DNA of 64,000 nt from an uncultured Acidobacteriota bacterium. GTDB taxonomy: Bacteria; Acidobacteriota; Thermoanaerobaculia; Multivoradales; UBA5704. The notes beneath the pieces were generated by a model, which was not told where the DNA came from, did no database searches, and saw only the letters and a program-made list of their open reading frames with translations. Location of the stretch: assembly GCA_963732005.1 (NCBI GenBank), contig CAVSXT010000005.1:2057315-2121314 (forward strand), written 5' to 3'. How positions within the stretch are numbered: the stretch's first letter is position 1; every line of letters starts with the position of its first letter. Shown here piece by piece: positions 8,460 through 41,302 of the stretch. A program made the position numbers and the translations under genes.

Positions 8460-8529
8460 GGTACCAATGTACCAAAGTAGATGTCAATAGAAATAGAGGC
8501 TCGGCAGTCCTAATGCTGGTACATTGGTA
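8460..8529. promoter_or_regulatory. Perfect 13-bp inverted repeat (TACCAATGTACCA ... TGGTACATTGGTA) separated by 42 bp in the divergent promoter region; a candidate operator
   Basis: Read directly: 8462-8474 TACCAATGTACCA and 8517-8529 TGGTACATTGGTA are exact reverse complements. It lies between the divergent LLM gene (start 8375) and the RHH-like gene (start 8581) and spans an AT-richer TTGACA-like stretch (atgtcaatagaaatag). Confidence 0.5.
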
Positions 8530-8580
8530 GATGCGCACGGACCGAGAAGTCGAGGTCGTTGCCGAGAGGAGGCTCGCGAG

Positions 8581-8877
8581 ATGGCCAGCGCCAGAGGTAA
8601 CGCCGGTAGGGCGACATTCGAGGTGGAGCGCGTGCAGACGGGGGTCCGGATGGAGAAGCGGATCCTCAAGGTGCTCAAGGCGCTGGCGGAGCTGCACGAT
8701 CTCTCGCTCGGCGACCTGCTGGAGGGCATCGTGCTGCACGCCTTCGAGGGCAAGTCGCCGTTCGGGGCCGAGACCCTGCGCCAGGTGGTGGAGCTGAAGC
8801 GCATCTACGGCCTGGACCTCGACGCCGGCGCGAGCCACCGCTTGCGGGAAGCCGCCCGGAGGGGCCGCGGGCGCTGA
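8581..8877 (+). CDS. Small putative DNA-binding protein (ribbon-helix-helix/CopG-like)
   Basis: ATG at 8581 preceded by GAGAGGAGG. The sequence ...MEKRILKVLKALAELHDLSLGDLLEGIVLHAF... resembles RHH regulators. Weak assignment. Confidence 0.45.
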   Translation: MASARGNAGRATFEVERVQTGVRMEKRILKVLKALAELHDLSLGDLLEGIVLHAFEGKSPFGAETLRQVVELKRIYGLDLDAGASHRLREAARRGRGR

Positions 8878-8940
8878 GCGGCTCGCCGTGCACCGTGCGG
8901 TGGCAATGCCGTGCCGGAGGGAACGGAAGGAGTTGAGGCG

Positions 8941-10167
8941 ATGGAGCGGCGGCCGAATGGCCCGCCGGCGCCGGCGGGATATGATTCTGGGCTGGTGACC
9001 CTCTCCATTCTCGACGCTGTGCGCGATCCCACGGGACGGCGGGCGTTCCTGCGCCTGCCGGATGTGGTCTATGCCGGCGATCCCGGCTACTGCGCCTCGC
9101 GTCCCGGCGACGCCGTGGCGAGCCTGGAGCGGCGGGAGTTCGCGGAGCGCCAGCTGGCGATGGTGGCAGTTGCGGCAGGGCGGCCGGCGGCGCGGCTGGT
9201 GGCGCGGCTGTCGCCGACGCTGCGCGACGCATCCGGGCGGCCCTACGGCATGCTGGGGTTCGCCGAGGCGCTGGCCGGCGCGACCGGCGGCGCGGCGGCG
9301 GCGCGGCTGTTCGCCGAGGCGATCGCCTGGCTGCGGGCTGGCGGCGCCGGCGAGATCATCGGTCCGATGGACGGCGACACCTGGCACCGCCACCGCCTGA
9401 ACGTCGGCCCCTGGGACGAGGAGCCCTTCCTGCTCGAGCCCTACAACCCGCCGCACTATCGCGAGCTCTGGGAGGCGCAGGGGTTCGCCGTGCTGGAGCG
9501 CTACGGTTCGCTGCGGGTCGACGATCTGCCGGCCGTCGCCGCGCATCTCGAGCCGCGGCGGCGGCAGGCGCTCGACGCAGGCTACCGCCTGCGGCGGCTG
9601 GACATGGGCCGCTTCCGCGAAGAGCTGGGGGTGCTCTACCGGCTGTCGTGCGCCATCTTCGCCGGCAATTTCCTCTACACCGAGATCCCGGAGGCCGAGT
9701 TCGCAGCCCTCTACGTCGGCGCCCGCGGCCTGGTCGACCCGGATCTGGCGTGGATCGCGGAGGCTCCCGGCGGCGAGCCCGTCGGCTTCCTGTTCGCGTT
9801 TCCGGACCGCTTCCGCGAGGTGGCGGCGCTGCGCGGCGGGCGCGGGCCGGGCGCGTTGCTGCGCTACGGCGCGGCCCGCCTGCGGCGGCGCGGTAGGCTG
9901 CCGGCGGTGAACTTCAAGACCCTCGGCGTGCTCGCCGCGCACCGCCGCGCGGGCATCGCCGCAGCGCTCATGGGCCAGGGCCACCAGGTGGCGGCGGCCA
10001 AGGGCTACGCCATCGCCCACCACTGCCTGTTCCGGGAGGGCAACCCCTCCGGCCGTCTCGACGGCGGTCATGGCCGCGTGCTGCGCCGCTACCTGCTCTA
10101 CCGGCTGGCCACGGCGCCTGACGGCGGGCCGGCGGCGGTGGCGGCAACGGGGGCGGTGGCGGGGTGA
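8941..10167 (+). CDS. GNAT/FemAB-like N-acyltransferase superfamily protein (double-domain, about 408 aa)
   Basis: ATG at 8941 with GGAAGGAG upstream. Acyltransferase-like segments (PYGMLGFAE, GIAAALMGQGHQVAAAKGYAIAHHCLFREGNPS). The stop overlaps the next gene's GTG (GTGA). Confidence 0.6.
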   Translation: MERRPNGPPAPAGYDSGLVTLSILDAVRDPTGRRAFLRLPDVVYAGDPGYCASRPGDAVASLERREFAERQLAMVAVAAGRPAARLVARLSPTLRDASGRPYGMLGFAEALAGATGGAAAARLFAEAIAWLRAGGAGEIIGPMDGDTWHRHRLNVGPWDEEPFLLEPYNPPHYRELWEAQGFAVLERYGSLRVDDLPAVAAHLEPRRRQALDAGYRLRRLDMGRFREELGVLYRLSCAIFAGNFLYTEIPEAEFAALYVGARGLVDPDLAWIAEAPGGEPVGFLFAFPDRFREVAALRGGRGPGALLRYGAARLRRRGRLPAVNFKTLGVLAAHRRAGIAAALMGQGHQVAAAKGYAIAHHCLFREGNPSGRLDGGHGRVLRRYLLYRLATAPDGGPAAVAATGAVAG

Positions 10168-12188
10168 GGGCGGCCGGCGCGGGAGCAGACGGCGAGGGCG
10201 GGGAGCATGCCGCGGGTGCCGCGGGTGCCGGGGGCGCCGCGGGCGGCAGCGCCAACGTCATCGAGCTGCTGGCGGCGGCGGCGCGGCGACATCCCGAGCG
10301 GCCCGCGCTGGTGACCTCTGAGCCGGGCGGCCGGCAGCAGGGAATCACCTATGGCGCCCTGTGGCAGCGTGTCCGGCGGGTGGCGGCCGGCCTGCGGCAG
10401 GCCGGCCTCGCGCCGGGCGAGCGGGCGATCGTCATGATCCCGATGTCGATCGATCTCTACGTCGCCCTGCTGGCGCTGCTCGAGCTGGGCGCGGTGGCGG
10501 TGTTCGTGGATCCCTGGATCGGCTGGCGCCAGGTGGCCGCCTTCGCCGCCTTCGCGTCGCCCGCGGCCTACCTGGGAACGCCGCGCAGCCACCTGCTGCG
10601 CTGGCTCTCGCCGGCGCTGCGGCGGGTGCGGCTGACGGTCACCACCGGCCGGCGCTGGGGGCCGCTGCCGGCCGGCCGCAGCCTGGCGGAGCTGGCGGCG
10701 GCGGGCGCCGCGGCCGGTACGAGCGAGGGTGCCGCGGGCCACGCCGGCAGGGGTGGCGAGGGTGCCGGGAGCGAGGTCGCGGCAGCTGCCCGAGGCGATG
10801 CCGTCAGGAATGCCAGCGGTGAAGCGAGCAGGAGCGCCGACGCCGCCGGGGACGGGGTCGCAGGAGAGATCTTCCGGGCCGCTGCCGGCGACCCGGCGCT
10901 GATCACTTTCACCAGCGGCTCCTCGGGCGAACCCAAAGGAGCCAACCGCACGCATGGCTTCCTGCGCGCCCAGCACCTGGCCCTGGCCGCCGAGTTCCCG
11001 CTGGCGGCCGACGACGTGGACCTGACGATGTTCCCGGTCTTCGCCCTGCGCAACCTGGCGAGCGGCGTCACCTCGGTCGTCCCGGCGATGGACTTCGCCC
11101 GCGTCGACCGCGTCGACGGCGCGGCGCTGCTGGCGCAGATGGAGGCTCACGGCGTGACCACCTGCACGGCGTCGCCGCCGTTCTTCGACCGCCTCGCCGC
11201 GGCGATCGCGGCGGCCGGTGCCGGCGGGGGCGATGCGGGCGGGCGGCCCGACCAGGACCTGCCGCCCCCGGCGCCCTTGCGGCGGCTGCGCCGCCTGCTG
11301 ACTGGCGGCGCGCCGGTCGCCGACGAGCAGCTGGCGCTCTGGCGGCGGGCGCTGCCGGAGACCGAGATCGTGGTGGTGTACGGCTCGACCGAAGCGGAGC
11401 CGGTCGCCCACCTCACCGTCGAGGAGCGATTGGCCCTGTGCAGAGCCTCGGCCCCGGCCGCGGTCTTGCCGGGCGCGGCGCCGGTGGCCGGCTACTGCGT
11501 CGGGCCGCCGTGCGCCGCGGTGCGGGCGCGCGTCATCCGTATCCACGGTGGTGCGGTGACGCTCGACGGCGGTTGGGCGGCTTGGGAGGTGCCGGCCGGC
11601 GAGGTCGGCGAGCTGGTGGTCGCCGGCGACCACGTCTGCCAGGACTATTTTCGCAATCCCGAGGCGGTGGCGGAGAACAAGATCCGTGACGCCGAGGGGG
11701 TGATCTGGCACCGCATGGGGGACACCGGCCGCCTCGACGCGCAGGGCCGCTTCTGGCTCGCCGGCCGGGTGCACTCGACGATCTGGCGCGCCGGCCGGGC
11801 GGTGCACCCCCAGCTCGTGGAGCAGGCGGCGGCGCAGGCGCTGGGCCGCTCCGCGCAGGCCATGGCGGCGGTGGGGCTGCCGGACGAGGCGCTGGGCGAG
11901 CGGGTGGTGCTGGTGATCGAGGGCGAGGAGGACGCCGGCGTGCACGCCGCTCTCGCGGCGCGCCTCGGTGGCGGGACGGAGGCGGGCGGCGCGGAGCCAG
12001 GCGGCGCGGAGCCGGGCGGGGCGGAGCCGGGCGTCGGTATCGCGATCGACGAGGTCGTGTTCAGCCGCCAGCCGTTGCCGCGCGATCCGCGCCACCGCAG
12101 CAAGGTCGACTACGCGCAGCTGCGCCGGCGGCTGCTGCGCGGCGGCGGCGCCGGCGGGCGCCTGCCCGCGGCGGGGAGCGGCCGATGA
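10164..12188 (+). CDS. AMP-dependent synthetase/ligase (acyl-CoA synthetase / fatty-acyl-AMP ligase-like)
   Basis: AMP-binding motif ITFTSGSSGEPKG and the core YGSTEAEP...GDTGRLD. GTG start overlaps the preceding stop; its own stop overlaps the next ATG (ATGA). Confidence 0.85.
   Translation: MRAAGAGADGEGGEHAAGAAGAGGAAGGSANVIELLAAAARRHPERPALVTSEPGGRQQGITYGALWQRVRRVAAGLRQAGLAPGERAIVMIPMSIDLYVALLALLELGAVAVFVDPWIGWRQVAAFAAFASPAAYLGTPRSHLLRWLSPALRRVRLTVTTGRRWGPLPAGRSLAELAAAGAAAGTSEGAAGHAGRGGEGAGSEVAAAARGDAVRNASGEASRSADAAGDGVAGEIFRAAAGDPALITFTSGSSGEPKGANRTHGFLRAQHLALAAEFPLAADDVDLTMFPVFALRNLASGVTSVVPAMDFARVDRVDGAALLAQMEAHGVTTCTASPPFFDRLAAAIAAAGAGGGDAGGRPDQDLPPPAPLRRLRRLLTGGAPVADEQLALWRRALPETEIVVVYGSTEAEPVAHLTVEERLALCRASAPAAVLPGAAPVAGYCVGPPCAAVRARVIRIHGGAVTLDGGWAAWEVPAGEVGELVVAGDHVCQDYFRNPEAVAENKIRDAEGVIWHRMGDTGRLDAQGRFWLAGRVHSTIWRAGRAVHPQLVEQAAAQALGRSAQAMAAVGLPDEALGERVVLVIEGEEDAGVHAALAARLGGGTEAGGAEPGGAEPGGAEPGVGIAIDEVVFSRQPLPRDPRHRSKVDYAQLRRRLLRGGGAGGRLPAAGSGR
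11991..12035. repeat. 3 x 15-bp tandem repeat encoding (GGAEP)3 inside the AMP-ligase C-terminus
   Basis: gcggagccaggcggc / gcggagccgggcggg / gcggagccgggcgtc, read directly. Confidence 0.8.
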
Positions 12189-13150
12189 GCGACGGCGCCG
12201 CCACTCTCAGTCTCGCCTCGCCGTTCCCGCTCCGGCTGCGCGCCTATCTCGCGGAGCGCTTCCCGCTGCTCGGCCATGGCGTGCTCATCGCCGCCTACTA
12301 CTCCTCCAACCAGTTCCTCGCCCGCGTCCTCACCGCGCCCGGGCGGCCGATGCGCTACGACCTCTCGTCGCTGGCCGGCGCCGTCACCCTGTTCTGCTTC
12401 TTCTTCCACCTGCGGGTCTTCGACGAGCACAAGGATTACCGCGACGACTGCCTGCACTACCCCGAGCGGGTGCTGCAGCGGGGCCTCGTCTCGCTGGCGC
12501 AGCTGCGCCTGCTGGGCGGCGGCGCCATCGCCGTCGAGCTGGCGCTGGCCGCCGCCAACGGCCTGCCGGCGCTCATCGCGCTGCTCGCCGCGCTCGCCTT
12601 CTCGCTGCTGATGCTGCGCGAGTTCTTCGCCGGCGCCTGGCTGCGGCGCCACTTCCTGCTCTATGCCGCCTCCCACATGCTGATCATGCCGCTGCTGTCG
12701 CTGATGGTGTTCGCGTTCGCCACCGGCCGCTTCCCGTGGCAGGCGCCGGCCTGGTTCTGGGTTTACAGCTGGGTGGGCTTCTGCGTCACCTCCAACTGGG
12801 AGGTGTCGCGCAAGATCCGCGCGCCGGCCGACGAGATCGAGGGCGTCGAGAGCTACACCCGCGTCTTCGGCACCTACGGCGCCGCCTATGTGGTCCTCGG
12901 CATCCGCGTCCTCGACACCGGCATGGTGGCGCTGGTGGGCCACCACCTGGGCCTGCCGGCCAGCTTCTACGCCGCGCTGGTGGCGCTCTTCGTCCTCTGC
13001 CTCGGTGGCTTCTTCGACTACCGCTTCCGCACCAGCCGCGCCAGCGCCAAGCGCATGGAGCTCTTCGCCGGCATCTACATCATCGCCTTCGATCTCATCC
13101 TCGCCTTCGAGATCGGCCGCCGCTTCGGCATCGCTCCCCCGTGGCGCTGA
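12185..13150 (+). CDS. Polytopic membrane protein, UbiA-prenyltransferase-like (tentative)
   Basis: About 8 predicted hydrophobic helices and an Asp-rich loop, RVFDEHKDYRDD, reminiscent of the UbiA NDxxDxxxD motif. ATGA overlaps on both sides. Confidence 0.5.
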   Translation: MSDGAATLSLASPFPLRLRAYLAERFPLLGHGVLIAAYYSSNQFLARVLTAPGRPMRYDLSSLAGAVTLFCFFFHLRVFDEHKDYRDDCLHYPERVLQRGLVSLAQLRLLGGGAIAVELALAAANGLPALIALLAALAFSLLMLREFFAGAWLRRHFLLYAASHMLIMPLLSLMVFAFATGRFPWQAPAWFWVYSWVGFCVTSNWEVSRKIRAPADEIEGVESYTRVFGTYGAAYVVLGIRVLDTGMVALVGHHLGLPASFYAALVALFVLCLGGFFDYRFRTSRASAKRMELFAGIYIIAFDLILAFEIGRRFGIAPPWR

Positions 13151-16107
13151 TGAACGAGCCCGCAACGCCGAACGCCGCGGCCGCCGGCGACGCCCTGGTG
13201 GTGGCGGACCTGGCGAGCGCGGCCCGCCAGCGCGAGCGGCTGGGCGGCAAGGCCGCCAACCTTGCCCGGCTGGAGGCCCTGGGCCTGCCGGTGCCGCCCT
13301 GGTATGCGGTCACCACCGCGGCCTTCGCGGCGGCGGTCGACCCGGACCTGCGCGGGCGCATCGCGGCGCGGCTGGCGCCGTTCGCAAGGCAGGAGGGAAG
13401 CCCGCCGGGCCAGGTCCCGGTGGCCGCCGCCGGCGCGGCACGCGACCTGGAGGTGTCGACGCGCGAGCTCGACGCGGCGGCGCGCGACGTCCGCTCCTGG
13501 ATCGAGGCGCTGCCGCTGCCCGCGGGCCTGGGGGCAGCGATGGCGGCGGCGCACGCGGCGCGCATCGGCGCCGGCGCCTTCGTCGCGGTGCGCTCCTCGG
13601 CGGCCGGCGAGGACGCCGCCGGCGAGTCGTTCGCCGGACTGCACGACAGCTTCCTCTACGTGCGTGGCGAGACGGAGGTCGAGTCGGCGTTGCGGCGGGT
13701 CTGGTCGTCCGCCTACAGCGAGCGCGCCCTCGCCTACCGGCTGGCTCAGGGGCTGCCGCTGCTGGAGATCGCGGTGGCGGTGGTGGTGCAGGAGATGGTC
13801 ACGGCGCGCGCCAGCGGCGTGCTCTTCACCGCCGACCCGGCGACCGGCAGCGTCCACGACATCGTGATCAGCGCCCTCTACGGCGCCGGCGAAGGGCTGG
13901 TCAGCGCCGGCCTCGACGCCGACACCTTCGTGGTCGACAAGCAGAGCCTCGAGGTCGACCAGCGCCTCGCCGGCAAGCGCGAGCGGCTGGTCTTCGACGC
14001 CGAGGGTGGCAGCGGCTTGCGCCACGAGCCGGTGCCGGCGGCGATGCAGGAGGCGAGCAGCCTGAGCGCCGCCGAGGTCGGCGCCCTGGCGCGGCTCGGC
14101 CTGCTCGTCGAGCGGCACCACGGCTGCCCGCAGGACCTCGAGTTCGCCATCGACGAGGGCGGCCGCGCCTGGCTGCTGCAGGCGCGGCCGGTGACCACCG
14201 TCGCCGAGCTCGGGCCGGCGGCCGGCAACCGCCTGCTGTGGGACAACTCCAACATCATCGAGAGCTACTCCGGCGTCACCTCGCCGATGACCTTCAGCTT
14301 CATCCGGCGCGCCTACGCCATCGTCTATCACTGCTTTGCCGAGGTGATGGGCATCGAGCCGGGAAAGGTGCGCGCCCATCGCGTGGTCTTCGATCACATG
14401 CTCGGCCTGTTCCGCGGCCAGGTCTATTACAACCTCCGCAACTGGTATGCCCTGGTGCGGCTCTTCCCCGGCTACCAGTACAACCAGAAGTTCATGGAGT
14501 CGATGATGGGGGTGCGGGAGCCGGCCGCCGATCCCGCGGATGCCGCGGACACCGCGGGCACGCCGGCGCCAGTTGCCGGTGCGGCTCGCGTCGCCAGGAT
14601 CGCCGCGGCGCCGTCGCGCCTGCACCGCTACACCGTCGAGCTGCCGGCGCTGCTGCGCCTGGTGCTGCGTTCGGCGAGCAACTTCCTGCACATCCGGCGC
14701 ATCGTCGGCGACTTCCAGACGTCGTTCTCGGCGCTCTACGGCGAGTGGTCGGCGCGCGACTTCAGCGCCATGGCGCCGCACGAGCTGCTGGCCCTCTATC
14801 GCGAGATGGAGGACCGGCTGCTGTGGAACTGGAAGGCGCCGATCGTCAACGACTTCTTCGTCATGGTCTTCTACGGCACCCTCAAGCGGCTAGCCACGAG
14901 CTGGTGCGGCGACGCCTCGGGGTCGTTGCAGAACGACCTGATCTGCGGTGAGGGTGGCATCGAGAGCACCGAGCCGACCAAGATGCTGCTGGCGATGGCC
15001 GCGGCGGCGCGCCGGCGGCCGGAGGTGGTGGAGCTGCTGCGCGCGAGCCCTCCCCAGGTGCTGGCCGCGCAGGTGCCTGCGGACCCGCGCTGCGCCGAGC
15101 TGGCCGCGGCGGTGCGGCGCTACCTCGAGCTCTACGGCCTGCGCTGCATGAACGAGCTGAAGCTCGAGGAGCCGTCGCTGCGCGACCGCCCGGCATTCCT
15201 CTACCAGGTGCTGCGCAACTACCTCGCGGCGAGCGATGCCGCGGCCCTCGACGTCGCCGCCCTGGAGGCGCGGGAGGGCCAGATCCGCGCCGCGGCGGAG
15301 CGTCGCGCGGCGGCGGCGCTGGCGGCCCGGCGGGGCCTGCTGCCGCGCCGCGCGGTTTTCCGATGGGTGCTCGGCAACGCGCGCCTGGGGGTCAAGAACC
15401 GCGAGAACCTGCGTTTCGCCCGCACCCGCATCTACGGCCTGCTGCGCGAGCTGCTGCGCGCCGTGGGCCACCGCTTCACCGCGGCGGGGATCCTCGCCGC
15501 GCCGGAGGACGTCTTCTACCTCACGCTCGACGAGGTCTGGGACTACGTCGAGGGCATGGCGGTGACCACCGACCTGCGGGGTCTGGCGGCGCTGCGCCGC
15601 GCCGAGTTCGACCGCTACCGCGAGGTCGAGGCCCGGCCCGAGGACCGCTTCGAGACCTTCGGCATGGCCTACCACCGCAACCTCTTCCGGGGCCGGCCGC
15701 CGCGGCGCGTCGTTGCCGGGAGCGCAGGTGCCACTGCCGGGGGCGACGCGGGCGACGCGGGCGGGGCGGGCGACATGGGCGCCGGCGCGGCAGTCTTGCA
15801 GGGCACTCCCTGCTGTCCGGGGGTGGTGACCGGAGCGGTCAAGGTGATCCGCACGCCGGCCGACGACGCCAGCCTGGCGGGCGAGATCCTGGTCGCCGAG
15901 CGCACCGATCCGGGCTGGGTGCCGCTCTACCCGTCGGTCTCGGGCCTGCTCATCGAGCGCGGCAGCATCCTCTCGCACTCCGCCATCGTCGCCCGCGAGA
16001 TGGGCATCCCGACCATCGTCGGCATCCCGGGGTTGATCGCGGCGATGCGGACCGGCCAAAGGGTCCGCATGGACGGCGCCGCCGGCACCGTCGAGCTGCT
16101 GGACTAG
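13150..16107 (+). CDS. PEP-utilising enzyme (phosphoenolpyruvate synthase / rifampicin-phosphotransferase-like; PPDK N-terminal ATP-grasp plus mobile His domain)
   Basis: N-terminal GGKAANLARLEALGLPVPPWYAV (PPDK_N) and C-terminal GVVTGAVKVIRTP...GEILVAERTDPGW...ILSHSAIVAREMGIPTIVG (PEP-utilising mobile domain). ATG at 13150 overlaps the upstream stop. Confidence 0.8.
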   Translation: MNEPATPNAAAAGDALVVADLASAARQRERLGGKAANLARLEALGLPVPPWYAVTTAAFAAAVDPDLRGRIAARLAPFARQEGSPPGQVPVAAAGAARDLEVSTRELDAAARDVRSWIEALPLPAGLGAAMAAAHAARIGAGAFVAVRSSAAGEDAAGESFAGLHDSFLYVRGETEVESALRRVWSSAYSERALAYRLAQGLPLLEIAVAVVVQEMVTARASGVLFTADPATGSVHDIVISALYGAGEGLVSAGLDADTFVVDKQSLEVDQRLAGKRERLVFDAEGGSGLRHEPVPAAMQEASSLSAAEVGALARLGLLVERHHGCPQDLEFAIDEGGRAWLLQARPVTTVAELGPAAGNRLLWDNSNIIESYSGVTSPMTFSFIRRAYAIVYHCFAEVMGIEPGKVRAHRVVFDHMLGLFRGQVYYNLRNWYALVRLFPGYQYNQKFMESMMGVREPAADPADAADTAGTPAPVAGAARVARIAAAPSRLHRYTVELPALLRLVLRSASNFLHIRRIVGDFQTSFSALYGEWSARDFSAMAPHELLALYREMEDRLLWNWKAPIVNDFFVMVFYGTLKRLATSWCGDASGSLQNDLICGEGGIESTEPTKMLLAMAAAARRRPEVVELLRASPPQVLAAQVPADPRCAELAAAVRRYLELYGLRCMNELKLEEPSLRDRPAFLYQVLRNYLAASDAAALDVAALEAREGQIRAAAERRAAAALAARRGLLPRRAVFRWVLGNARLGVKNRENLRFARTRIYGLLRELLRAVGHRFTAAGILAAPEDVFYLTLDEVWDYVEGMAVTTDLRGLAALRRAEFDRYREVEARPEDRFETFGMAYHRNLFRGRPPRRVVAGSAGATAGGDAGDAGGAGDMGAGAAVLQGTPCCPGVVTGAVKVIRTPADDASLAGEILVAERTDPGWVPLYPSVSGLLIERGSILSHSAIVAREMGIPTIVGIPGLIAAMRTGQRVRMDGAAGTVELLD

Positions 16108-16138: not shown

Positions 16139-17614
16139 TCAGGAATGAACCTGCAGCGGCTGGAAGGCGCCCCAGACGGCCAGGTCCGGGCGCCAGGCGG
16201 ATGCCAGGCCGGCCCACTGCAGCGCCAGGACCAGCGCGGCGGCGGCGAAGGCGAGGAGGAAAAGGCGCGCCGGCCAGGGGATGTCGGCCTCCTCCTCGGC
16301 CTCCAGGCCACCCTCGTCGCGGACCAGGGCGGCGTTCGCCAGGGAGACCGCCAGCACCACGGTGCTCACCGCCAGCAGGGGTGAGGGCGGGAGGCCCTGG
16401 ATCAGCCAGGGCGGCACGGCGACCGCCAGCCCGGCCGCGGCGCCGGCGGCGGCGCCCGCGAGCCAGGGCGCTGCCCGCAGGGCCCTCCAGGTGCGCGGGG
16501 TCCGCAGCTCAGGCGGCGACCCGGGCGCCGCGCGGCAACTCGGCCGCCGGCGCAGCAGGATCAGCAGCCCCGGCCGCAGGCAGAATGCGAGCACCGCGCC
16601 GGAGGCGGCCAGGTAGGGGCCGTAGGCAGGGTCGAAGGCCTGGCGGAAGCTGTTGGCGAGGATCAGGATGCAGAACGGCGGCAGCACGGCGCGGGCCAGG
16701 GTCTGCACCCGCGCCCCGCCCGGCCGCCCGCGGCGCCCGAGGTAAACCCAGATGGCAACGTAGGCGGCGAAGCCGATGAAGGCCGGCAGCGCCCACTGCC
16801 AGCTGCCCAGCGACCAGGCGCCGTAGGCGTAGAGGATGAACGCCAGCGTGCCGCCGGCGTTGAGCGCGCGTGTCCGCCAGACCAGCGCCGCCACCACCAG
16901 GCAGATGACCAGCAGCGAGAGGTTCTGGAAGATCACCTCGGCGAGCGGCTGGGCGGTGATCTTGCCCAGCACCACCGCCACCGCCAGCGGCACGAAGAGG
17001 TTGTCCGCCCCCTTCAGCGAGATGGCCTCGAAACCGGTCACCAGCGCCGCCACCAGCAGCGCGGCGAGCACGCAGACCGGGCGCGGCAGGGCGGTGAGCA
17101 GCAACATCGGGAGATGCATGGCGAGGAAGGCGATGACCAGGAAGACCATCGATCCCTCGAGGCTCTTGTACTCGTCCTCGACCTGGTAGCGCACCACGCC
17201 GTAGCGGCTGCCGATGAGCGCGGCGAAGGCGTCGCCGACCGCCAGCACCAGCAGCGCCGAGACATAGATCCAGGGCCGGTCGCGGGCGATGAGGAAGACC
17301 AGGAAGACCGCCAGCGGGTAGTACTCGACGCCGCGGCTGCGGCGGCTGACCCCATGCAGGCTGCGCAGGAAACCGAGGCGGCCGCCGAGCGCGAAGACGG
17401 CGGTGAGCGCCGCCGCCATCGCCAGCACCACCCACGGCGAGCGCACCAGGAACGGGAAGAACAGGCAGGCGATGCCGCCGCCCATGTGGACCAGCTTGCG
17501 CGTCCACTCGGCCTGCGGATTGCCGAAGCGCCGCCAGAGCTCGGCGGCGAGCAGCAGGCCCAGGAACACGCCGGACAGCACCGCCGCCCCCGGCAGGTCC
17601 GCGCGCCAGTCCAT
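16139..17614 (-). CDS. Membrane protein with an N-terminal polyprenol/dolichol-kinase (CTP-dependent, Sec59/VTE5/CdsA-superfamily)-like domain fused to a further multi-TM domain
   Basis: RKLVHMGGGIACLFFPF and VGDAFAALIGSRYG (a GDxxAxxIGxxxG motif). The ATG overlaps the BtaA-like stop (TGATG). Confidence 0.5.
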   Translation of the reverse strand: MDWRADLPGAAVLSGVFLGLLLAAELWRRFGNPQAEWTRKLVHMGGGIACLFFPFLVRSPWVVLAMAAALTAVFALGGRLGFLRSLHGVSRRSRGVEYYPLAVFLVFLIARDRPWIYVSALLVLAVGDAFAALIGSRYGVVRYQVEDEYKSLEGSMVFLVIAFLAMHLPMLLLTALPRPVCVLAALLVAALVTGFEAISLKGADNLFVPLAVAVVLGKITAQPLAEVIFQNLSLLVICLVVAALVWRTRALNAGGTLAFILYAYGAWSLGSWQWALPAFIGFAAYVAIWVYLGRRGRPGGARVQTLARAVLPPFCILILANSFRQAFDPAYGPYLAASGAVLAFCLRPGLLILLRRRPSCRAAPGSPPELRTPRTWRALRAAPWLAGAAAGAAAGLAVAVPPWLIQGLPPSPLLAVSTVVLAVSLANAALVRDEGGLEAEEEADIPWPARLFLLAFAAAALVLALQWAGLASAWRPDLAVWGAFQPLQVHS

Positions 17615-18825
17615 CAGCACACCTCCTCGAGGACGAAGGCGCTGTAAAAGAAAGCGCGGTCGTGCGCGAACAGCTCGGCGGCCTCGGCGTCGAGCGCGCG
17701 CACCCGCGGCACCCGCGGCGCCGCCGCCGCCGCCGGCGACGCAGCGGGCGCCGGCGGCGGGCAGCGGCGCGGCACCAGCATGTTCCAGTAGGCCAGGCGG
17801 GCGCCGGGGTTGGCGGCGGCCAGCAGGCCACGGAAGATGCGGGCGCAGGCCGGCGGATCGAGGTACTCGAAGATGTCCGACAGGTTGAAGCCGTCGAAGC
17901 CGCCGCCGCCGGCCGCGACGATCGCGGCGCCAACCTCGTCGATGGCTCCCAGGTGCAGCGCCAGCGCTTCCGGCCGGCTGTCGAGGCGCGCCCGCAACCG
18001 CGCCCAGACCTCGGGGCGCAGGTAGTGCGGCAGGGCGGTGTCGAAGCCGCCGGTCAGGATGTAGCGCACGTAGGGGTTGTCGGCGATCGGCAGCACGGTG
18101 AGCGCGTAGCGGGCGCGCCCCAGGATGCGCTCGGCCACCGAGCCCTCGACGTAGCGGAAGAACTCCGGATCGCGGCCCAGCCTGCCCATCGCCGCGCGGC
18201 TGAAGAAGAGGCGGAAGAGCAGCCGCCAGCGCCAGGTGTCCCAGCGCCGGCGGTAGAAGTCTGCCCGCCCGGCGGCGTCGCGCGGCGCCAGCAGCTCGCC
18301 GACGGTGCGGCGGCCATGGACGAGCGGCAGGACGCGGCGCCGGAAGAGGCCGAAGTAGTGCTCGAACTTGCCCCAGTGGATGACCCCGCCGGCCACCGCC
18401 GCGGCGTTGCGGTGCCAGTAGTCGCGGGTCTCCGGCGACAGCTCGCCGCCGAGGTCCGCGAGCGTCGCCAGCCGGTCCCGCTCCGGAACCGCCGGCCGCA
18501 CGCCGAGGAAGCCAAGCAGCGCCGCGTAGGGCAGGCGCCGGATCGCGGCGCGCTTGAGCTCGGCGAGCGCCAGCTGCGCCGGCGACAGGTCGACGGCCAC
18601 CACGTCGGCGCCCGCCGCCACCAGCGACAGGCAGTTGTCCCCGGCCGAGGCGATCCCCAGGATGCGCGCGCCCGGCCGCGGTCGCAGGGCGGCCACCAGG
18701 ACGTCCGCGTCCTCCCAGCAGTTGGCGTAGCGGACGAAGTCGAAGCGGGCCCGGTCCGCGATCCGGTCGGCGGGCGGCGCCGGATCGCCGTGAGCCTGGG
18801 CCGGCGCCGGCCGTTCGGGGTTCAT
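17614..18825 (-). CDS. DUF3419 / BtaA-like S-adenosylmethionine:diacylglycerol 3-amino-3-carboxypropyltransferase family protein
   Basis: FDFVRYANCWEDADVL...ILGIASAGDNCLSL is characteristic of DUF3419 (BtaA). ATG verified at the complement of 18823-18825. Confidence 0.7.
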   Translation of the reverse strand: MNPERPAPAQAHGDPAPPADRIADRARFDFVRYANCWEDADVLVAALRPRPGARILGIASAGDNCLSLVAAGADVVAVDLSPAQLALAELKRAAIRRLPYAALLGFLGVRPAVPERDRLATLADLGGELSPETRDYWHRNAAAVAGGVIHWGKFEHYFGLFRRRVLPLVHGRRTVGELLAPRDAAGRADFYRRRWDTWRWRLLFRLFFSRAAMGRLGRDPEFFRYVEGSVAERILGRARYALTVLPIADNPYVRYILTGGFDTALPHYLRPEVWARLRARLDSRPEALALHLGAIDEVGAAIVAAGGGGFDGFNLSDIFEYLDPPACARIFRGLLAAANPGARLAYWNMLVPRRCPPPAPAASPAAAAAPRVPRVRALDAEAAELFAHDRAFFYSAFVLEEVC

Positions 18826-18893: not shown

Positions 18894-19526
18894 ATGAGCG
18901 ACCAAGGGCCGCAGGCCGCGGCGGAGCCCGGCAGCCTGCAGCTGGATCACGCCGAGTTCGCCGACGGGCAGCCGCAGCGCTGCGCCGTCTGCGGCCAGGC
19001 GCTGGCCGGCAGCTATTACGAGGTCGCCGGCCGCGTCTGCTGCGCGGCCTGCCACCAGCGGCTGGTCGGGGCCTTCGAGCGGCGGCCGGGACCTGCCGGC
19101 TTCCTGCGCGCGGCGGGCGCCGGACTGGCCGCCGCGGTGGTGGGGGCAGGGGTCTACTTCGGCGTCTCGGCGCTCACCGGGTATCACTTCGGCTTGATCT
19201 CGATCCTGGTGGGCTTCCTGGTCGGCAAGGCGGTGCACTGGGGCTGCGGCGGCCACGGCGGCGGGCTGTACCAGGCGCTGGCCGTCGTCCTCACCTACCT
19301 GGCGATCGTCGGCACCTACGTGCCGGCGGTCTACGCCGCCTACCAGCGCGCCGACGTCCCGAGCGCGGTGCTGGTCGCCGCGACGCTGCCTCTCCGGGGC
19401 GGCGTCGGCATGCTCGGCCTGATCGTCATCGCCGTCGGGCTCTACGAGGCGTGGCAGCTGAACCGCCGGCCCCGGCTGCAGACCTCCGGCCCGCACGCGC
19501 TGACGCCGGCGGCCTGGCGGCGATGA
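18894..19526 (+). CDS. Zinc-ribbon-containing membrane protein
   Basis: AGGAG followed by ATG at 18894. Contains CAVCGQ...CCAAC (CxxC...CxxC) followed by about 4 hydrophobic helices. The stop overlaps the next ATG (ATGA). Confidence 0.55.
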   Translation: MSDQGPQAAAEPGSLQLDHAEFADGQPQRCAVCGQALAGSYYEVAGRVCCAACHQRLVGAFERRPGPAGFLRAAGAGLAAAVVGAGVYFGVSALTGYHFGLISILVGFLVGKAVHWGCGGHGGGLYQALAVVLTYLAIVGTYVPAVYAAYQRADVPSAVLVAATLPLRGGVGMLGLIVIAVGLYEAWQLNRRPRLQTSGPHALTPAAWRR

Positions 19527-20551
19527 CCTGCGCCTGCGGCACCGAGGTGGCGCCGGCGCTGCTCGCCTGCCCCTCCTGCCATGCCCTGGTCCATGCCGCC
19601 GTGCTCAAGGGGCTGGCGTCGTCGGCCGAGGCCGCCGGCCGGAACGGCGATCCCGTCGCGGAGCTCGCCAGCTGGCGGCGGGCGCTGGAGCTGCTGCCTC
19701 CGGGGTCGAGGCAGGCGACACAGGTCGGGGCCAAGGTCGCCGCGCTGAGCGAGGCCGCCGCGATGGGGGGCCGGCCGGCCGCCGGCGCCGGTGCCGGCGC
19801 CGGCGCGCCCGCGGGCGGCGAGGCCGGAGACGGCGCGCGGCGGCGCTCCTGGAGCCTCCGCGGCGGCCTCGCGACCGGCCTCGCCTTCCTGGCGACCAAG
19901 GCCAAGCTGCTGCTGCTCGGGCTCACCAAGGCGGGGACGCTGCTCTCCATGCTGCTGACGGTGGGCGTCTACTGGACCATCTTCGGCTGGTGGTTCGCGG
20001 TGCTGGTGGTGCTGTCGATCTACGTGCACGAGATGGGGCACGTGGCGGCGCTGCGCCGCTTCGGCATCCAGGCCAGCGCGCCGATGTTCGTGCCCGGCCT
20101 GGGGGCGCTGATCCGCCTGCGCCAGCATCCGGCCAACCCGCGCGAGGACGCGCGAATCGGCCTGGCCGGCCCCATCTGGGGCCTCGGCGCCGCGGTCGTC
20201 GCCTACGCCGGCTTCCTGCTCGGCTGGGGACCGCTGTGGGCCGCCGTCGCGCGCTTCGGCGCCTGGGTCAACCTGTTCAACCTGCTGCCGGTCTGGCAGC
20301 TCGACGGCGGCCGGGCTTTCCGCGCGCTGTCGCGCCGGCAGCGCCTGGCGGCGGCGGCGGTGCTGGCCGGGCTGTGGGCGCTGAGCCGCGAGGGCCTGCT
20401 GCTGCTGCTGCTGATCGCGGCCGCGGTCCAGGCCTTCCGCCGCGACGCCCCGGAAACCGAGGACCCCATCGCGCTCGGCCAGTACGCCGGCCTCGCCGCC
20501 GCCCTGACGCTGCTCTGCCAGCTGCACGTCCCCCTCGCCGGCCCAAGGTAG
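19523..20551 (+). CDS. M50 family (site-2 protease-like) zinc metalloprotease with an N-terminal Zn-ribbon
   Basis: HEMGH (HExxH) and the LLPVWQLDGG motif. N-terminal CACG...CPSC. Confidence 0.75.
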   Translation: MTCACGTEVAPALLACPSCHALVHAAVLKGLASSAEAAGRNGDPVAELASWRRALELLPPGSRQATQVGAKVAALSEAAAMGGRPAAGAGAGAGAPAGGEAGDGARRRSWSLRGGLATGLAFLATKAKLLLLGLTKAGTLLSMLLTVGVYWTIFGWWFAVLVVLSIYVHEMGHVAALRRFGIQASAPMFVPGLGALIRLRQHPANPREDARIGLAGPIWGLGAAVVAYAGFLLGWGPLWAAVARFGAWVNLFNLLPVWQLDGGRAFRALSRRQRLAAAAVLAGLWALSREGLLLLLLIAAAVQAFRRDAPETEDPIALGQYAGLAAALTLLCQLHVPLAGPR

Positions 20552-24408: not shown

Positions 24409-25722
24409 ATGCGCCGGCGCGGCCACTTCGCGCGGCTGCTGGTAGCCGCATTCGGGCTGGCGGGGCTGGCCGGCTGCAGCCATGCGCAGGGCTCGCCGCC
24501 GGCAGCGGCCCCCCAGCCCGCGGACGGCGCGCTGGCGGTGCGGCGCGGCAGCCTGCGCCCGCAGCTGCTGCTCAGCGGCGAGATCCGGGCGGCGGCAGCC
24601 GTGCCGCTGGTGACGCCGGCGACGTCCGACTTCCAGCTGACGCTGACCTGGCTTGCCGAGGACGGCTCGACGGTCGCCGCCGGCCAGCCGGTGGCGCAGT
24701 TCGACAACTCCGCGTGGGTGGCGCAGATCGAGGAGAAGCGTTCCGCCGTCACCGCCGCCGTGGCCGAGCTGGCGCGGCTGCGGGCCGACGGCCTCGCCAA
24801 GCTGGCCGACCTGGCCTTCGCCGTCGAGCAGAAGCGCCACGACCTCGCCAAGGCGCGCACCGCCGCCGCGGTGCCGGCCGAGCTGCTGTCGGCGTTCGAC
24901 TACCAGGATTTGCAGCTGAAGCTAAAGAGCGCCGAGACCGAGCTGGCCAAGGCCGAGAAGGACCTGGCCACCGAGCGCGGCGCCGGCGCCGCCGACCTCG
25001 GCGTGCAGGAGGTGGCGCTGGCCAAGGCGCGCCGTGAGCTGGCAGCCGCCGAGTCCGGCGTCCGCGACCTCACCGTGCGGGCGCCGCAGGCGGGCACCGT
25101 GCTGATCGCCGACCACCCCTGGGAAGGCCGCAAGGTGCAGGTGAGCGACAACCTGTGGCCGGGCATGGCCGTGGCGACGCTGCCGGATCTGTCCTCGACG
25201 CTGGTGGAGGCGGCGCTCTCCGACGTCGACGACGGCCGGGTGACGCCGGGGATGGCGGCGGCCTGCATCGTCGACGCCTTCCCGGACGAGGTCTACGCCG
25301 GGCGCGTGGCCGAGGTCGCGGCGGTGGCCCGCGAGTCGGGCCGCAGCGCGCTGCTGCGCTACTTCCCGGTGCGCATCGCGCTGGCGCCGCTGCCGCTTTC
25401 CCGGCGCAGCCGGTTGCGCCCGGGCATGTCGGTGCGGGTCGAGATCGCCGCGGCGCCGGTGCGCGACGCGCTGCTGGTGCCGCGGGCGGCCCTCGACCTC
25501 GCGTCGCGGCCGCCGCGGGCGCTGCTGGCCGGCGGCGGCGCGGCGGCGGTGCGGCTGGGCCCCTGCGATTCCTTCTGGTGCGTCGCCGAGAGCGGCGTCG
25601 CGGCCGGCCAGGCCCTGCGGCGGCGCGGCGGCGGCGACACCGCCGACACCGCCGACACCGCCGATTCCTCCCATGCCGCCCATGCCTCCCATGCCTCAGA
25701 CACCGCGGGGGAGGGGCGATGA
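24409..25722 (+). CDS. HlyD-family periplasmic adaptor (membrane fusion protein) 1, lipoprotein-type signal
   Basis: LAGC lipobox, coiled-coil and beta-barrel segments typical of HlyD/MacA-like adaptors. C-terminal DTADTADTAD / SHAAHASHAS low-complexity tail. Confidence 0.8.
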   Translation: MRRRGHFARLLVAAFGLAGLAGCSHAQGSPPAAAPQPADGALAVRRGSLRPQLLLSGEIRAAAAVPLVTPATSDFQLTLTWLAEDGSTVAAGQPVAQFDNSAWVAQIEEKRSAVTAAVAELARLRADGLAKLADLAFAVEQKRHDLAKARTAAAVPAELLSAFDYQDLQLKLKSAETELAKAEKDLATERGAGAADLGVQEVALAKARRELAAAESGVRDLTVRAPQAGTVLIADHPWEGRKVQVSDNLWPGMAVATLPDLSSTLVEAALSDVDDGRVTPGMAAACIVDAFPDEVYAGRVAEVAAVARESGRSALLRYFPVRIALAPLPLSRRSRLRPGMSVRVEIAAAPVRDALLVPRAALDLASRPPRALLAGGGAAAVRLGPCDSFWCVAESGVAAGQALRRRGGGDTADTADTADSSHAAHASHASDTAGEGR

Positions 25723-26996
25723 CCGCCTTTGTTCGCGACGCCGCCGGGCGCCCGCGCCGGCCGGCGATGCCGATCGCGCTGGCGGCGGTCGCCGTCCTCG
25801 CCCTGGCCGGCGTCGCCGCCGTCGCGCTCGGCGCCCGCATGCAGCGGACGGCCCTGGCCGTCGGCGGCGAATGGGCCGAGGTGCATCGCGAGGACCTGGT
25901 GATCGCGGTGCCGGTGAGCGGCAGCCTCGCCGCCATCGACGCCGCCCGCCTGGGCCCGCCGGCGATTGGCGGCGACATCTTTCGCGTCAAGATCACCTTC
26001 ATGGCGCCGGAAGGCAGGACGGTGCGCCGCGGCCAGCCGGTGCTGGCGTTCGACCCCGCGGAGCTGCAGAAGAACCTGCAGGTCAAGGAGGCCGAGCGCG
26101 ACTCGGCCGAGGAGAAGCTGAAGCAGCGGCGCGCCACGCTCGACATCTCGCGCCGCGACGACGAGCTGAAGCTGGCCCAGGCGGCGGCCGACGAGCGCAA
26201 GGCGGCGCTGAAGCTCGCCGTGCCGCCCGAGCTCAAGCGGCGGCACGAGCTCGAGGACGCGCGTGCCGACCTCGAGCTGGCGCAGCACGAGAACGCCTAC
26301 TACCGCGAGCGCCTGCGCCTGACCGGCGGCGCCGGCGACGCCGAGCTGCGGGCACTCGCCGAGCAGCGCGACCTGGCGGCGGCGCGGGTCGCCGAGACGC
26401 GGACCGAGATCGCCAGCCTGCAGGTGGCCGCTCCCCGCGACGGCACGGTGGTCTACGTGGCGGACCGCAAGGGGGTGAAGAAGAAGGTGGGAGACTCGGT
26501 CTGGCGCCGGGAGGTGGTGCTCGAGATCCCCGACCTGCGGCGCCTGCAGGCCGAGGGCGAGATCGACGAAGGCGACGCCGGCCGCGTCGCCGCCGGCCAG
26601 GTGGTCACGCTGCGCCTCGACGCGCATCCCGAGACCGCCTTCACCGGCCGGGTGCGCACCCTGCTCGGCGCCGTCGAGGCCCGTTCGCCCGCCGACCCCG
26701 CCAAGGTGGCGAAGCTGAAGATCGGCCTGGACCGCACCGAGCCGCTGCTGATGCGGCCGGGCATGCGCTTCGCCGGCGACGTCGAGGTGCAGCGCGCGCC
26801 CGGGGCCCTGGTGGCGCCGCTCGACGCGGTGGTCAACCGCGCCGACGGACCGCTGGTCTATCGCCGGACCGGCTTCGGCAGCGAGGCGGTGCGGCCGCGG
26901 CTCGGCCGCCACAACGACCGCTGGGTGGAGGTGCTGGCCGGCCTCCGTGCCGGCGACCTGGTGCGGCGCGCCGGCGGGCCGCGGGAGGGCGGATGA
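25719..26996 (+). CDS. HlyD-family periplasmic adaptor 2
   Basis: ATGA overlap with adaptor 1. N-terminal TM anchor, long coiled coil (KNLQVKEAERDSAEEKLKQ...) and a conserved C-terminal beta domain. Confidence 0.8.
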   Translation: MTAFVRDAAGRPRRPAMPIALAAVAVLALAGVAAVALGARMQRTALAVGGEWAEVHREDLVIAVPVSGSLAAIDAARLGPPAIGGDIFRVKITFMAPEGRTVRRGQPVLAFDPAELQKNLQVKEAERDSAEEKLKQRRATLDISRRDDELKLAQAAADERKAALKLAVPPELKRRHELEDARADLELAQHENAYYRERLRLTGGAGDAELRALAEQRDLAAARVAETRTEIASLQVAAPRDGTVVYVADRKGVKKKVGDSVWRREVVLEIPDLRRLQAEGEIDEGDAGRVAAGQVVTLRLDAHPETAFTGRVRTLLGAVEARSPADPAKVAKLKIGLDRTEPLLMRPGMRFAGDVEVQRAPGALVAPLDAVVNRADGPLVYRRTGFGSEAVRPRLGRHNDRWVEVLAGLRAGDLVRRAGGPREGG

Positions 26997-28372: not shown

Positions 28373-28406
28373 GGCGCCGCCGCTGGGCTGGCAGGAGGCG
28401 GCGGCG

Positions 28407-41215: not shown

Positions 41216-41302
41216 GGAGGTGTGGCCGAGTGGACAATGGCAGCAGACTGTAAATCTGCCGGGCTAAGCCCTACCTAGGTTCGAATCCTAGCGCCTCCAC
41301 CA
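41216..41302 (+). tRNA. tRNA-Tyr (anticodon GTA), with encoded CCA
   Basis: GGAGGTG acceptor arm paired with CGCCTCC; anticodon loop CTGTAAA; long variable arm CGGGCTAAGCCCTACC; T-arm CTAGG-TTCGAAT-CCTAG; 3' ACCA. Confidence 0.9.

Follow-up and report, generated by a model that had tools for sequence, protein, structure and literature searches.

A DUF3419 (BtaA-family) gene coupled to a polyprenol-kinase-like membrane protein gene in a cluster shared by several bacterial phyla

In genomes and metagenomes alike, genes of the BtaA family are routinely taken to mark betaine-lipid (DGTS) synthesis and a membrane remodelling that spares phosphorus. BtaA uses diacylglycerol and SAM to form diacylglyceryl-O-homoserine, which BtaB then N-methylates (PMC10685587). 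Whether a BtaA-like (DUF3419) gene that has no BtaB beside it, and overlaps the gene of a membrane protein (MEM), still points to this pathway is the question raised by a 64,000-nucleotide stretch of DNA from an uncultured Acidobacteriota bacterium (contig CAVSXT010000005.1), which was analysed as a whole and is here called the window. A sequence-only reading of the locus had seen in the pair a possible unusual lipid head-group pathway, with betaine lipids (DGTS) or homoserine lipids as the products to look for, and had grouped it with a convergent four-gene operon as what looked like a membrane-lipid remodelling island. The features of the locus are as follows.

17614..18825, minus strand: DUF3419 (BtaA-family) class-I SAM-dependent transferase, 403 aa (Pfam PF11899)
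17612..17616, minus strand: TGATG stop/start overlap from DUF3419 to MEM (direct sequence reading)
16922..17614, minus strand: MEM N-terminal domain, residues 1-231, polyprenol-kinase-like, CTP_transf_1 superfamily (hhalign)
16139..16921, minus strand: MEM C-terminal accessory domain, residues 232-491, with the stop codon (AF2 helices)
13150..16107, plus strand: Rph/PEP-synthase-like ATP-dependent phosphotransferase, 985 aa (Pfam PPDK_N, PEP-utilizers)
12185..13150, plus strand: UbiA-like membrane prenyltransferase, 321 aa (Pfam PF01040)
10164..12188, plus strand: acyl-adenylate/CoA ligase, 674 aa (Pfam AMP-binding, E 6.9e-49)
8911..10167, plus strand: two-domain GNAT-like acyltransferase (weak GNAT Pfam matches, clearer in an orthologue)

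Direct reading of the sequence confirmed the coordinates of the two minus-strand genes and the TGATG junction at which they had been described as joined. The A is common to the DUF3419 stop codon TGA (17616-17614) and the MEM start codon ATG (17614-17612), and MEM is a 491-aa membrane protein encoded by the ORF at 16139-17614 on the minus strand. The convergent four-gene operon is likewise real, with overlaps at every junction (GTGA at 10164, ATGA at 12185 and TGATG at 13150). An ORF at 11968-16107 was rejected as a high-GC artefact, the real genes being those at 12185-13150 (UbiA-like) and 13150-16107 (985 aa). Alignment indicates that the true start of the GNAT-like protein is probably M84, at position 9160. 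No terminator was found in the 31-bp gap between the convergent genes, Rfam gave no riboswitch or other RNA element except a tRNA-Tyr far from the pair, and PADLOC returned no match to anti-phage defence. The upstream neighbours of the pair are a 210-aa protein without a family and an M50 peptidase.

Comparison of 76 loci, fetched with MEM as the query, revealed that DUF3419 and MEM are adjacent (at most 90 nt apart) in 73 and share a 4-nt overlap in 51. The DUF3419 family was found in 80 of the 83 sequences compared, namely 82 fetched loci and the window. The pair occurs in Acidobacteriota, Planctomycetota, Verrucomicrobiota, Kiritimatiellota, Lentisphaerota and Gemmatimonadota, and was also seen on one alphaproteobacterial plasmid and in Brevibacillus. 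Its adjacency is beyond chance, and DUF3419 and MEM form the translationally coupled, nearly invariant core of a larger conserved cluster.

The first gene had been read as BtaA-like, and the HMM search that had been suggested bears this out: its product is a full-length match to PF11899 at E 1.5e-58, with 199 bits (cutoff 28) and coverage of positions 8-382 in a model of 385. The result named as refuting that reading, assignment to a family other than BtaA, did not arise. The SAM motif ILGIASAGDN is encoded at 18634-18663 and the acidic motif VVAVDLS at 18583-18603, and a large helical insertion rich in W, R and F spans about residues 82-283. A fold search with the AF2 model (pLDDT 85.9) retrieved a generic class-I SAM-enzyme core; since this is the fold of ordinary class-I methyltransferases, it does not separate methyl transfer from transfer of the 3-amino-3-carboxypropyl (ACP) group. 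The only activity among characterised PF11899 members is ACP transfer (PMC10685587). The protein shares 44-55% identity with cluster-linked homologues in other phyla, and hundreds of DUF3419 proteins are of near-identical length. Homologues are labelled SAM:diacylglycerol ACP transferase or BtaA family at JGI and NCBI. A plasmid collection contained three DUF3419 matches only, none of them at a btaAB locus. That no BtaB-like methyltransferase adjoins the pair held up, as Pfam and NCBIfam scans found no methyltransferase among the scanned window neighbours, and all-against-all ORF clustering of about 80 loci gave no recurrent one.

MEM carries the motifs EWTRKLVH (residue 36), GDAFAALIGSRYG (residues 127-139 of 491; 17198-17236), KSLEGS (150) and GADNLFVP (202), the second being the GDxxAxxIGxxxG motif recognised by the sequence-only reading. 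We take the set GDxxAxxxGxxxG ... K(S/T)xEGS ... DN(L)xVP to be a signature of the polyprenol-kinase family. Neither MEM nor 19 diverse relatives matched any Pfam or NCBIfam model, even at E 10, and a PDB search with the MEM profile gave no match. Residues 3-231 align with stand-alone proteins of 200-280 aa (hhalign probability 100%, E 1.7e-53), of which three of 16 pass PF01148 (best 33.7 bits against a 24-bit cutoff). The kinase-like domain proposed for MEM is thus recovered by the profile bridge and not by direct Pfam or NCBIfam models, and it is only through this bridge that the N-terminal domain is assigned as Sec59/VTE5-type polyprenol-kinase-like, within the CTP_transf_1 superfamily. 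All 25 cross-phylum invariant residues of MEM fall in this domain; those invariant in 19 sequences from eight phyla include D128, G135, Y138, G139, K150, S151, E153, G154, E196, G202, D204, N205 and P209. JGI names MEM homologues phytol or dolichol kinase.

In size and helix count the N-terminal domain resembles the Sec59/DolK, VTE5 and FOLK kinases. Three things set MEM apart from them: it falls below Pfam and NCBIfam thresholds and is linked through intermediates only, most lineages add an accessory membrane domain of 260 aa, and its gene is joined to that of a SAM enzyme through overlapping codons. Like VTE5-type kinases, it is paired in the genome with an enzyme of the UbiA family; VTE5 itself supplies VTE2, a UbiA-family prenyltransferase of plants and cyanobacteria. 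The kinase-like family also occurs in UbiA + CTP_transf_1 pairs and in pairs with HMG-CoA reductase (HMGR), both without DUF3419. By analogy, and given its UbiA and HMGR neighbours, MEM may carry out CTP-dependent phosphorylation of an isoprenoid alcohol.

The extra membrane domain attributed to MEM is present, at about 260 aa (residues 232-491) and not the 340 first estimated. It has about eight AF2-predicted helices and zero residues invariant across phyla, gave no BLAST alignment with the Brevibacillus or Roseinatronobacter versions, and is missing from two otherwise complete clusters (L086 and L089). A VTE6-like second kinase was considered for this domain and rejected, as none of its polar residues is invariant, intact clusters can lack it and no separate gene then stands in for it. 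Two longer MEM 'fusions' were left out of the evidence: P0260, an apparent artefact with a low-complexity tail, and P0285, in which half of DUF3419 reads through into MEM by fusion or frameshift.

The phosphotransferase of the convergent operon matches PPDK_N (E 1.9e-75), PEP-utilizers (E 9.4e-22) and Rph_4th, and its catalytic His motif GSILSHSAIVAREMGIP is intact (SHSAIVARE). It has the same three parts as Rph and PEP-synthase-like kinases (a PPDK_N ATP-grasp domain, Rph_4th and a mobile domain that bears the catalytic His), but groups with the uncharacterised NCBIfam entry PRK06241.2-2, at 867 bits, slightly under the cutoff of 883; at 322 bits against a cutoff of 999, it is not an Rph equivalog. 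The UbiA-like protein passes PF01040 (E 3.8e-9; 36.6 bits, cutoff 34.2). Its first Asp-rich motif is intact (FDEHKDYRDD...RVLQRG; the pattern DExKDxxxD...RxxxRG is invariant in the alignment), and the second is degenerate (E206/E217 with R209, K210, P214, G220 and Y224). Its profile matches DGGGP synthase 6m31, the best PDB sequence match, though a weak one (E 4e-4), and chlorophyll synthase (E 1e-3). Archaeal DGGGP synthase and CarS likewise place a UbiA-family enzyme beside a membrane protein of the CTP_transf_1 superfamily; unlike that system, the cluster has no GGGP synthase, and the MEM motifs are kinase-type and not CdsA/CarS-type.

The ligase contains the motifs TSGSSGEPKG, GSTEAEP and MGDTG and scores 364 bits against NCBIfam PRK09274, below the cutoff of 478, with OleC beta-lactone synthetases next best. 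The GNAT-like protein is 32% identical (E 5e-36) to a Brevibacillus orthologue with a clear Pfam GNAT match (E 4e-11), and its profile retrieved only N-acetyltransferases from the PDB. A SidF-like identity is not supported for it, as the same PDB search gave no SidF.

That the convergent operon is linked to the pair, as had been suspected, was borne out by co-linear occurrence of the same six families in Brevibacillus, Roseinatronobacter and several PVC, Gemmatimonadota and Planctomycetota loci. DUF3419, MEM, the Rph/PEP-synthase-like enzyme (PEPS), the UbiA-like enzyme, the acyl-adenylate ligase (AMP) and a GNAT or formyltransferase, joined in some lineages by a class-I-type HMGR, make up a six-to-seven-gene cluster present in at least eight bacterial phyla, for which literature searches found no published description. 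The order in Brevibacillus is HMGR-UbiA-PEPS-DUF3419-MEM-GNAT-AMP; a co-linear cluster lies on a 137-kb plasmid of Roseinatronobacter, the same genes are co-linear in L086, L088 and L089, and a Planctomycetota locus (L064) has a co-directional row of seven genes. PEPS was found in 37 loci, the UbiA-like enzyme in 31 and the ligase in 32, and all three lie within 10 kb in 23 of the 43 loci with enough flank. The pair stands without any full scored partner set within 10 kb in 19 of these 43, at least four of which have PEPS and/or UbiA matches at the flank edge. HMGR was found in 15 of the 43 and in 29 loci overall, and is absent near the window copy and its nearest relatives. A Formyl_trans_N protein takes the place of GNAT in three loci from three phyla (L062, L064 and L042). 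The cluster is very widespread and frequent in soil Thermoanaerobaculia, and MEM has 671 representatives at 50% identity (E < 1e-30). Its patchy distribution is HGT-like, consistent with horizontal mobility, and in L088 it is bordered by DDE transposases. ORF clustering of the loci gave no recurrent transporter, cyclase or regulator.

The best explanation, at a little short of an even chance, is that the product of the cluster is not DGTS but a homoserine-type lipid or membrane-bound metabolite, N-acylated and anchored by an isoprenoid. The families, the coupling of the genes and their joint occurrence in different phyla are observed; the chemistry is inferred from them. At the cytoplasmic face of the membrane, the MEM N-terminal domain would act on an isoprenoid substrate, either an alcohol or a phosphate, like the CTP-dependent Sec59/VTE5 kinases, and the UbiA-like enzyme would join a prenyl chain to an acceptor. 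The Rph-like enzyme might use ATP, through its swivelling His, to phosphorylate a hydroxyl of a hydrophobic intermediate. DUF3419, seated on the membrane beside MEM by its W/R/F-rich helical insertion, would move the ACP group from SAM onto the hydroxyl of a lipid. This step would parallel that of BtaA, except that the acceptor would be the isoprenoid lipid handled by MEM and UbiA and not diacylglycerol. The new alpha-amino group, which BtaB would trimethylate, would receive an N-acyl group through the ligase and GNAT, or in some lineages a formyl group. Where present, HMGR could provide mevalonate for the isoprenoid part or as an acyl donor. For the Rph-like enzyme and HMGR, these roles are guesses. 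The more specific proposal of an undescribed lipid class, with an isoprenoid anchor, an ether-linked homoserine whose source is SAM and a cap that is N-acyl, N-mevalonyl or N-formyl, is possible but doubtful.

The cluster DUF3419 shares with BtaA/BtaB and with BTA1 of algae and fungi a full-length PF11899 domain with a SAM-binding Rossmann core, a presumed membrane lipid substrate and a predicted ether-linked homoserine. In those systems BtaB is adjacent or fused (BTA1) and the amine is trimethylated, whereas the cluster loci have no BtaB, DUF3419 has a polyprenol-kinase-like membrane protein as its obligate partner in an isoprenoid and not a glycerolipid context, and the predicted fate of the amine is acylation or formylation. 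A diacylglycerol-based (DGTS) pathway is not supported: the conserved partners, namely UbiA, the kinase-like MEM and, in 29 loci, HMGR, are isoprenoid-type, and no N-methyltransferase recurs, an N-acyltransferase (GNAT or formyltransferase) and an adenylating ligase being kept instead. For the same reasons the label 'phospholipid-remodelling island' stays a guess. HMGR-bearing clusters have the three enzyme classes of a branch of fungal siderophore synthesis, in which HMG-CoA reductase, the mevalonyl-CoA ligase SidI and the GNAT transacylase SidF attach mevalonate to an amine as its N-acyl group (PMC3709128); the likeness is one of enzyme class, and the cluster differs in having no hydratase and, in the window copy, no HMGR.

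An unlikely alternative is that DUF3419 is a methyltransferase and that the product is a prenylated molecule, of quinone-like or terpenoid type, which is also methylated, with the ligase and GNAT decorating another part of it. Its logic parallels phytol salvage into tocopherol, in which the VTE5 kinase is followed by a UbiA-family prenyltransferase and then by SAM methyltransferases. DUF3419 has weak NCBIfam matches to demethylmenaquinone methyltransferase, UbiA + kinase-like pairs occur without DUF3419, and other PEP-synthase-like enzymes phosphorylate phenolic or hydrophobic hydroxyls (rifampicin, phenol, acetovanillone). Against it, the exchange of GNAT and formyltransferase needs an amine, which ACP transfer would supply, and ACP transferases are the only characterised PF11899 members (PMC10685587). 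Still less probable is an accessory secondary-metabolite cluster, the product being a diffusible terpenoid or meroterpenoid and not a membrane lipid. The HGT-like spread (the Roseinatronobacter plasmid and the L088 transposases), OleC synthetases as the ligase's second-best NCBIfam matches and an embedded HMGR, as in terpenoid clusters, are consistent with it, but the 671 MEM representatives and very wide occurrence in soil Thermoanaerobaculia, the two or three integral membrane enzymes and the lack of a recurrent transporter, cyclase or regulator argue the other way. The enzymology of this alternative overlaps that of the isoprenoid-anchored homoserine lipid; only the fate of the product differs. 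An ordinary BtaA for DGTS, with btaB at another genomic site and MEM and the convergent operon unrelated or loosely related, would accord with the strong PF11899 match, the database labels and the 19 loci without partner sets, but is very improbable given the nearly invariant, overlapping MEM adjacency in six or more phyla, the recurrence of the gene set as a single operon in distant phyla, the zero recurrent methyltransferases in about 80 loci and the isoprenoid, not glycerolipid, partners.

The combination of seven families matches no pathway that we found and suggests a product, either a lipid or a membrane-bound metabolite, that is new to science. It offers a testable role for PRK06241-type 'PEP synthases' and for the 450-aa kinase-like family, to which no Pfam entry corresponds, and two of the carriers, Brevibacillus laterosporus and Roseinatronobacter sp. 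S2, are in culture and open to experiment. If the isoprenoid-anchored product is real, its makers would be abundant, mostly uncultured soil and aquatic Thermoanaerobaculia, other Acidobacteriota, PVC phyla and Gemmatimonadota, and the BtaA family would be one of general lipid ACP transferases, not specific to DGTS. A large BtaA subfamily, common in soil Acidobacteriota and PVC phyla, is found without BtaB in a fixed cluster of isoprenoid type; for these lineages, DGTS annotations and the ecological inferences derived from them would then be wrong.

Full-length membership of the DUF3419/BtaA family (PF11899) was confirmed for the first gene of the pair, with a Pfam match of E = 1.5e-58 covering model positions 8-382 of 385. 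Its stop codon and the ATG of its membrane-protein partner (MEM) have one base in common in a TGATG junction, so that the coupling proposed in the sequence-only reading is also present. A Pfam and NCBIfam scan of the neighbours revealed no methyltransferase near the pair, in agreement with the earlier remark that no BtaB-like enzyme adjoins it. The pair and the genes upstream of it, in a window of ~73% G+C, are as follows:

16139-17614, minus strand: MEM, 491 aa, with GDAFAALIGSRYG at residues 127-139
17614-18825, minus strand: DUF3419 protein, 403 aa
18894-19526, upstream of and divergent from DUF3419: 210-aa protein without family
19523-20551, upstream of and divergent from DUF3419: M50-family peptidase

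Identical copies of both pair proteins are present in public data, where the first is labelled "DUF3419 family" or "SAM-diacylglycerol ACP transferase" (ACP, 3-amino-3-carboxypropyl) and MEM "hypothetical" or "dolichol kinase". The nearest GTDB locus (L006), 96% identical, comes from a MAG of the Thermoanaerobaculia (Acidobacteriota), and only this relative shares the 210-aa protein and the M50 peptidase. An M50/CBS peptidase near the cluster of another locus, L062, is unrelated to that of the window.

MEM matched no Pfam or NCBIfam model, even at E 10. Alignments of thirteen close and nineteen phylum-spanning homologues placed all 25 invariant residues within the first ~210 residues, including E36, R39, K40, H43, R91, G95, D128, G135, Y138, G139, K150, S151, E153, G154, E196, G202, D204, N205 and P209. 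A search with the most divergent MEM N-domain retrieved stand-alone proteins, 200-280 aa long, in which these residues are conserved; 3 of 16 pass or hit PF01148 (CTP_transf_1; best 33.7 bits against a 24-bit cutoff). Profile-profile comparison of the MEM and stand-alone alignments gave a probability of 100% (E 1.7e-53, MEM residues 3-231). Through this profile bridge, the N-domain is assigned to the CdsA/Sec59/VTE5 superfamily, as had been proposed; its motif pattern is presumably of the kinase rather than the cytidylyltransferase type. The extra membrane domain is likewise present, but comprises ~260 rather than 340 residues, with about eight predicted helices and no invariant residue. BLAST of this C-terminal domain against the Brevibacillus and Roseinatronobacter versions yielded no alignment. 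Clusters that are complete in other respects lack it, and no gene replaces it there; we regard it as accessory. At 50% identity, 671 representatives of this large two-domain family score E below 1e-30, almost all with a length close to 450 aa. The 654-aa metagenomic protein P0285 joins the C-terminal half of DUF3419 to a full MEM by read-through: the two may be naturally fused, or the 4-nt overlap may hold a frameshift or a gene-calling error. Two loci without a DUF3419 gene encode stand-alone kinase-like proteins: one of 230 aa beside HMG-CoA reductase (HMGR) and a CDP-alcohol phosphatidyltransferase (L090, 744-3918), and one of 272 aa with a 4-nt overlap with a 394-aa UbiA protein (L091, 1494-3493).

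A plasmid tblastn search with the DUF3419 protein gave matches in Roseinatronobacter sp. S2 and Brevibacillus laterosporus, both with the co-directional row (HMGR)-UbiA-PEP/pyruvate-binding protein-DUF3419-439-aa membrane protein-GNAT-AMP-binding protein. The operon convergent on the window pair contains the same families, and pairwise comparison confirmed the homology of each:

8911-10167, plus strand: GNAT-like
10164-12188, plus strand: adenylating ligase
12185-13150, plus strand: UbiA-like
13150-16107, plus strand: Rph/PEP-synthase-like, 985 aa

The operon junctions are stop/start overlaps at 10164 (GTGA), 12185 (ATGA) and 13150 (TGATG), like that of DUF3419/MEM. M84 (9160) is the probable start of the GNAT-like ORF and aligns with the first Met of its 281-342-aa homologues; a 117-aa ORF without family (8524-8877) lies upstream. 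A 1379-aa ORF (11968-16107) was rejected as a high-GC read-through artefact, overlapping the UbiA-like gene in a different frame and the Rph-like gene from 13150. Elsewhere, the window carries HlyD-like and MacB/FtsX-like efflux genes (25155-29657), a flavin amine-oxidase/phytoene-desaturase-family gene (29798-31183) and its sole tRNA, tRNA-Tyr GTA (41216-41302).

To survey the locus, 80 GTDB loci were fetched with a MEM profile and scored for all families. In 73 of the 76 loci evaluable for both genes, the distance from DUF3419 to a downstream MEM is at most 90 nt, and 51 of these show a 4-nt overlap. The PEP-synthase-like enzyme is present in 37 loci, the ligase in 32, UbiA in 31 and GNAT in 23; the first three all occur within 10 kb in 23/43 loci with enough flank, and lie at the flank edge in several more. 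HMGR immediately precedes DUF3419 in 29 loci (clustering gives 28), overlaps it by 4 nt in L062, and is class-I-like (TIGR00533, 329 bits, below the 442 cutoff). A Formyl_trans_N protein takes the place of GNAT in three loci from three phyla. No further recurrent family, and in particular no methyltransferase, was found among the surveyed loci. Hosts include Acidobacteriota, Planctomycetota, Verrucomicrobiota, Kiritimatiellota, Lentisphaerota and Gemmatimonadota, together with one alphaproteobacterial plasmid and one Bacillota genome. Metagenomic variants have a short MEM (L086, L089) or HMGR and flanking transposases (L088); in the latter, an alphaproteobacterial-type copy, DDE transposase and HTH genes on both sides (1-2546; 13420-14477) suggest recent mobility. 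The recurrence of the same families across loci, in one row elsewhere, therefore joins the convergent operon to the DUF3419/MEM pair far more strongly than the proximity first noted.

The operon enzymes were characterized by profile and motif analysis. The Rph-like enzyme keeps the catalytic His motif, comes close to the PRK06241.2-2 cutoff (867 against 883 bits) but falls far short of that for Rph (322 against 999), and has PigC/RedH among its NCBIfam matches. The UbiA-like protein narrowly passes the PF01040 cutoff, has an intact Asp-rich motif 1 and a degenerate motif 2, and is nearest to DGGGP synthase and chlorophyll synthase among solved structures. The ligase has the adenylation core motifs and ranks fatty-acid CoA ligase PRK09274 first, then OleC beta-lactone synthetases. 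The profile of the two-domain GNAT matches N-acetyltransferases exclusively among PDB entries.

For the cluster, the gene families, their translational coupling and conserved co-occurrence, the exchange of GNAT for a formyltransferase, and the absence of BtaB from the surveyed loci are established; it is very probably a genuine system of several genes rather than a DGTS locus of the btaAB type. BtaA transfers the ACP group of SAM to a lipid hydroxyl, leaving a free alpha-amine that BtaB methylates (PMC10685587). In the cluster, an amine-acylating module would stand where BtaB does, and we propose, with slightly less than even confidence, that ACP is transferred to an isoprenoid lipid whose new amine is then N-acylated or N-formylated. 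Judging from gene content, an isoprenoid is a more probable acceptor than diacylglycerol, since the obligate partner is polyprenol-kinase-like, the cluster includes UbiA and in many cases HMGR, and the kinase-like family accompanies UbiA or HMGR even in loci without DUF3419. The Rph-like enzyme could phosphorylate a hydroxyl of a hydrophobic substrate, or could prepare an oxygen atom for condensation in the manner of PigC/RedH. The trio of HMGR, ligase and GNAT is reminiscent, by analogy only, of the fungal conversion of mevalonate into an N-acyl group (PMC3709128). Alternatively, DUF3419 may be a methyltransferase of a pathway to prenylated compounds, which we consider unlikely. Still less probable is a diffusible natural product in place of a membrane lipid, which would leave the enzymology unchanged and alter the fate of the product. 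An ordinary BtaA with btaB elsewhere in the genome, set beside the conserved co-occurrence, is the most improbable reading.

Full-text literature searches found no published description of this gene combination, and mentions of DUF3419 in the literature searched concern DGTS or are incidental. Precedents exist for every enzyme family, but none was found for their combination or the implied product. That the cluster defines a new lipid class is possible, if doubtful. On Rhizobium sp. plasmid pMK-2 (L004, 817-7155), a DUF3419 protein 30% identical to that of the window occurs in a context unlike this cluster, in the order KAS III, NAD(P) oxidoreductase, MBL-fold hydrolase, CoF-synthetase-type adenylating enzyme, DUF3419 and 368-aa hypothetical protein, which likewise suggests that the roles of PF11899 extend beyond DGTS synthesis.
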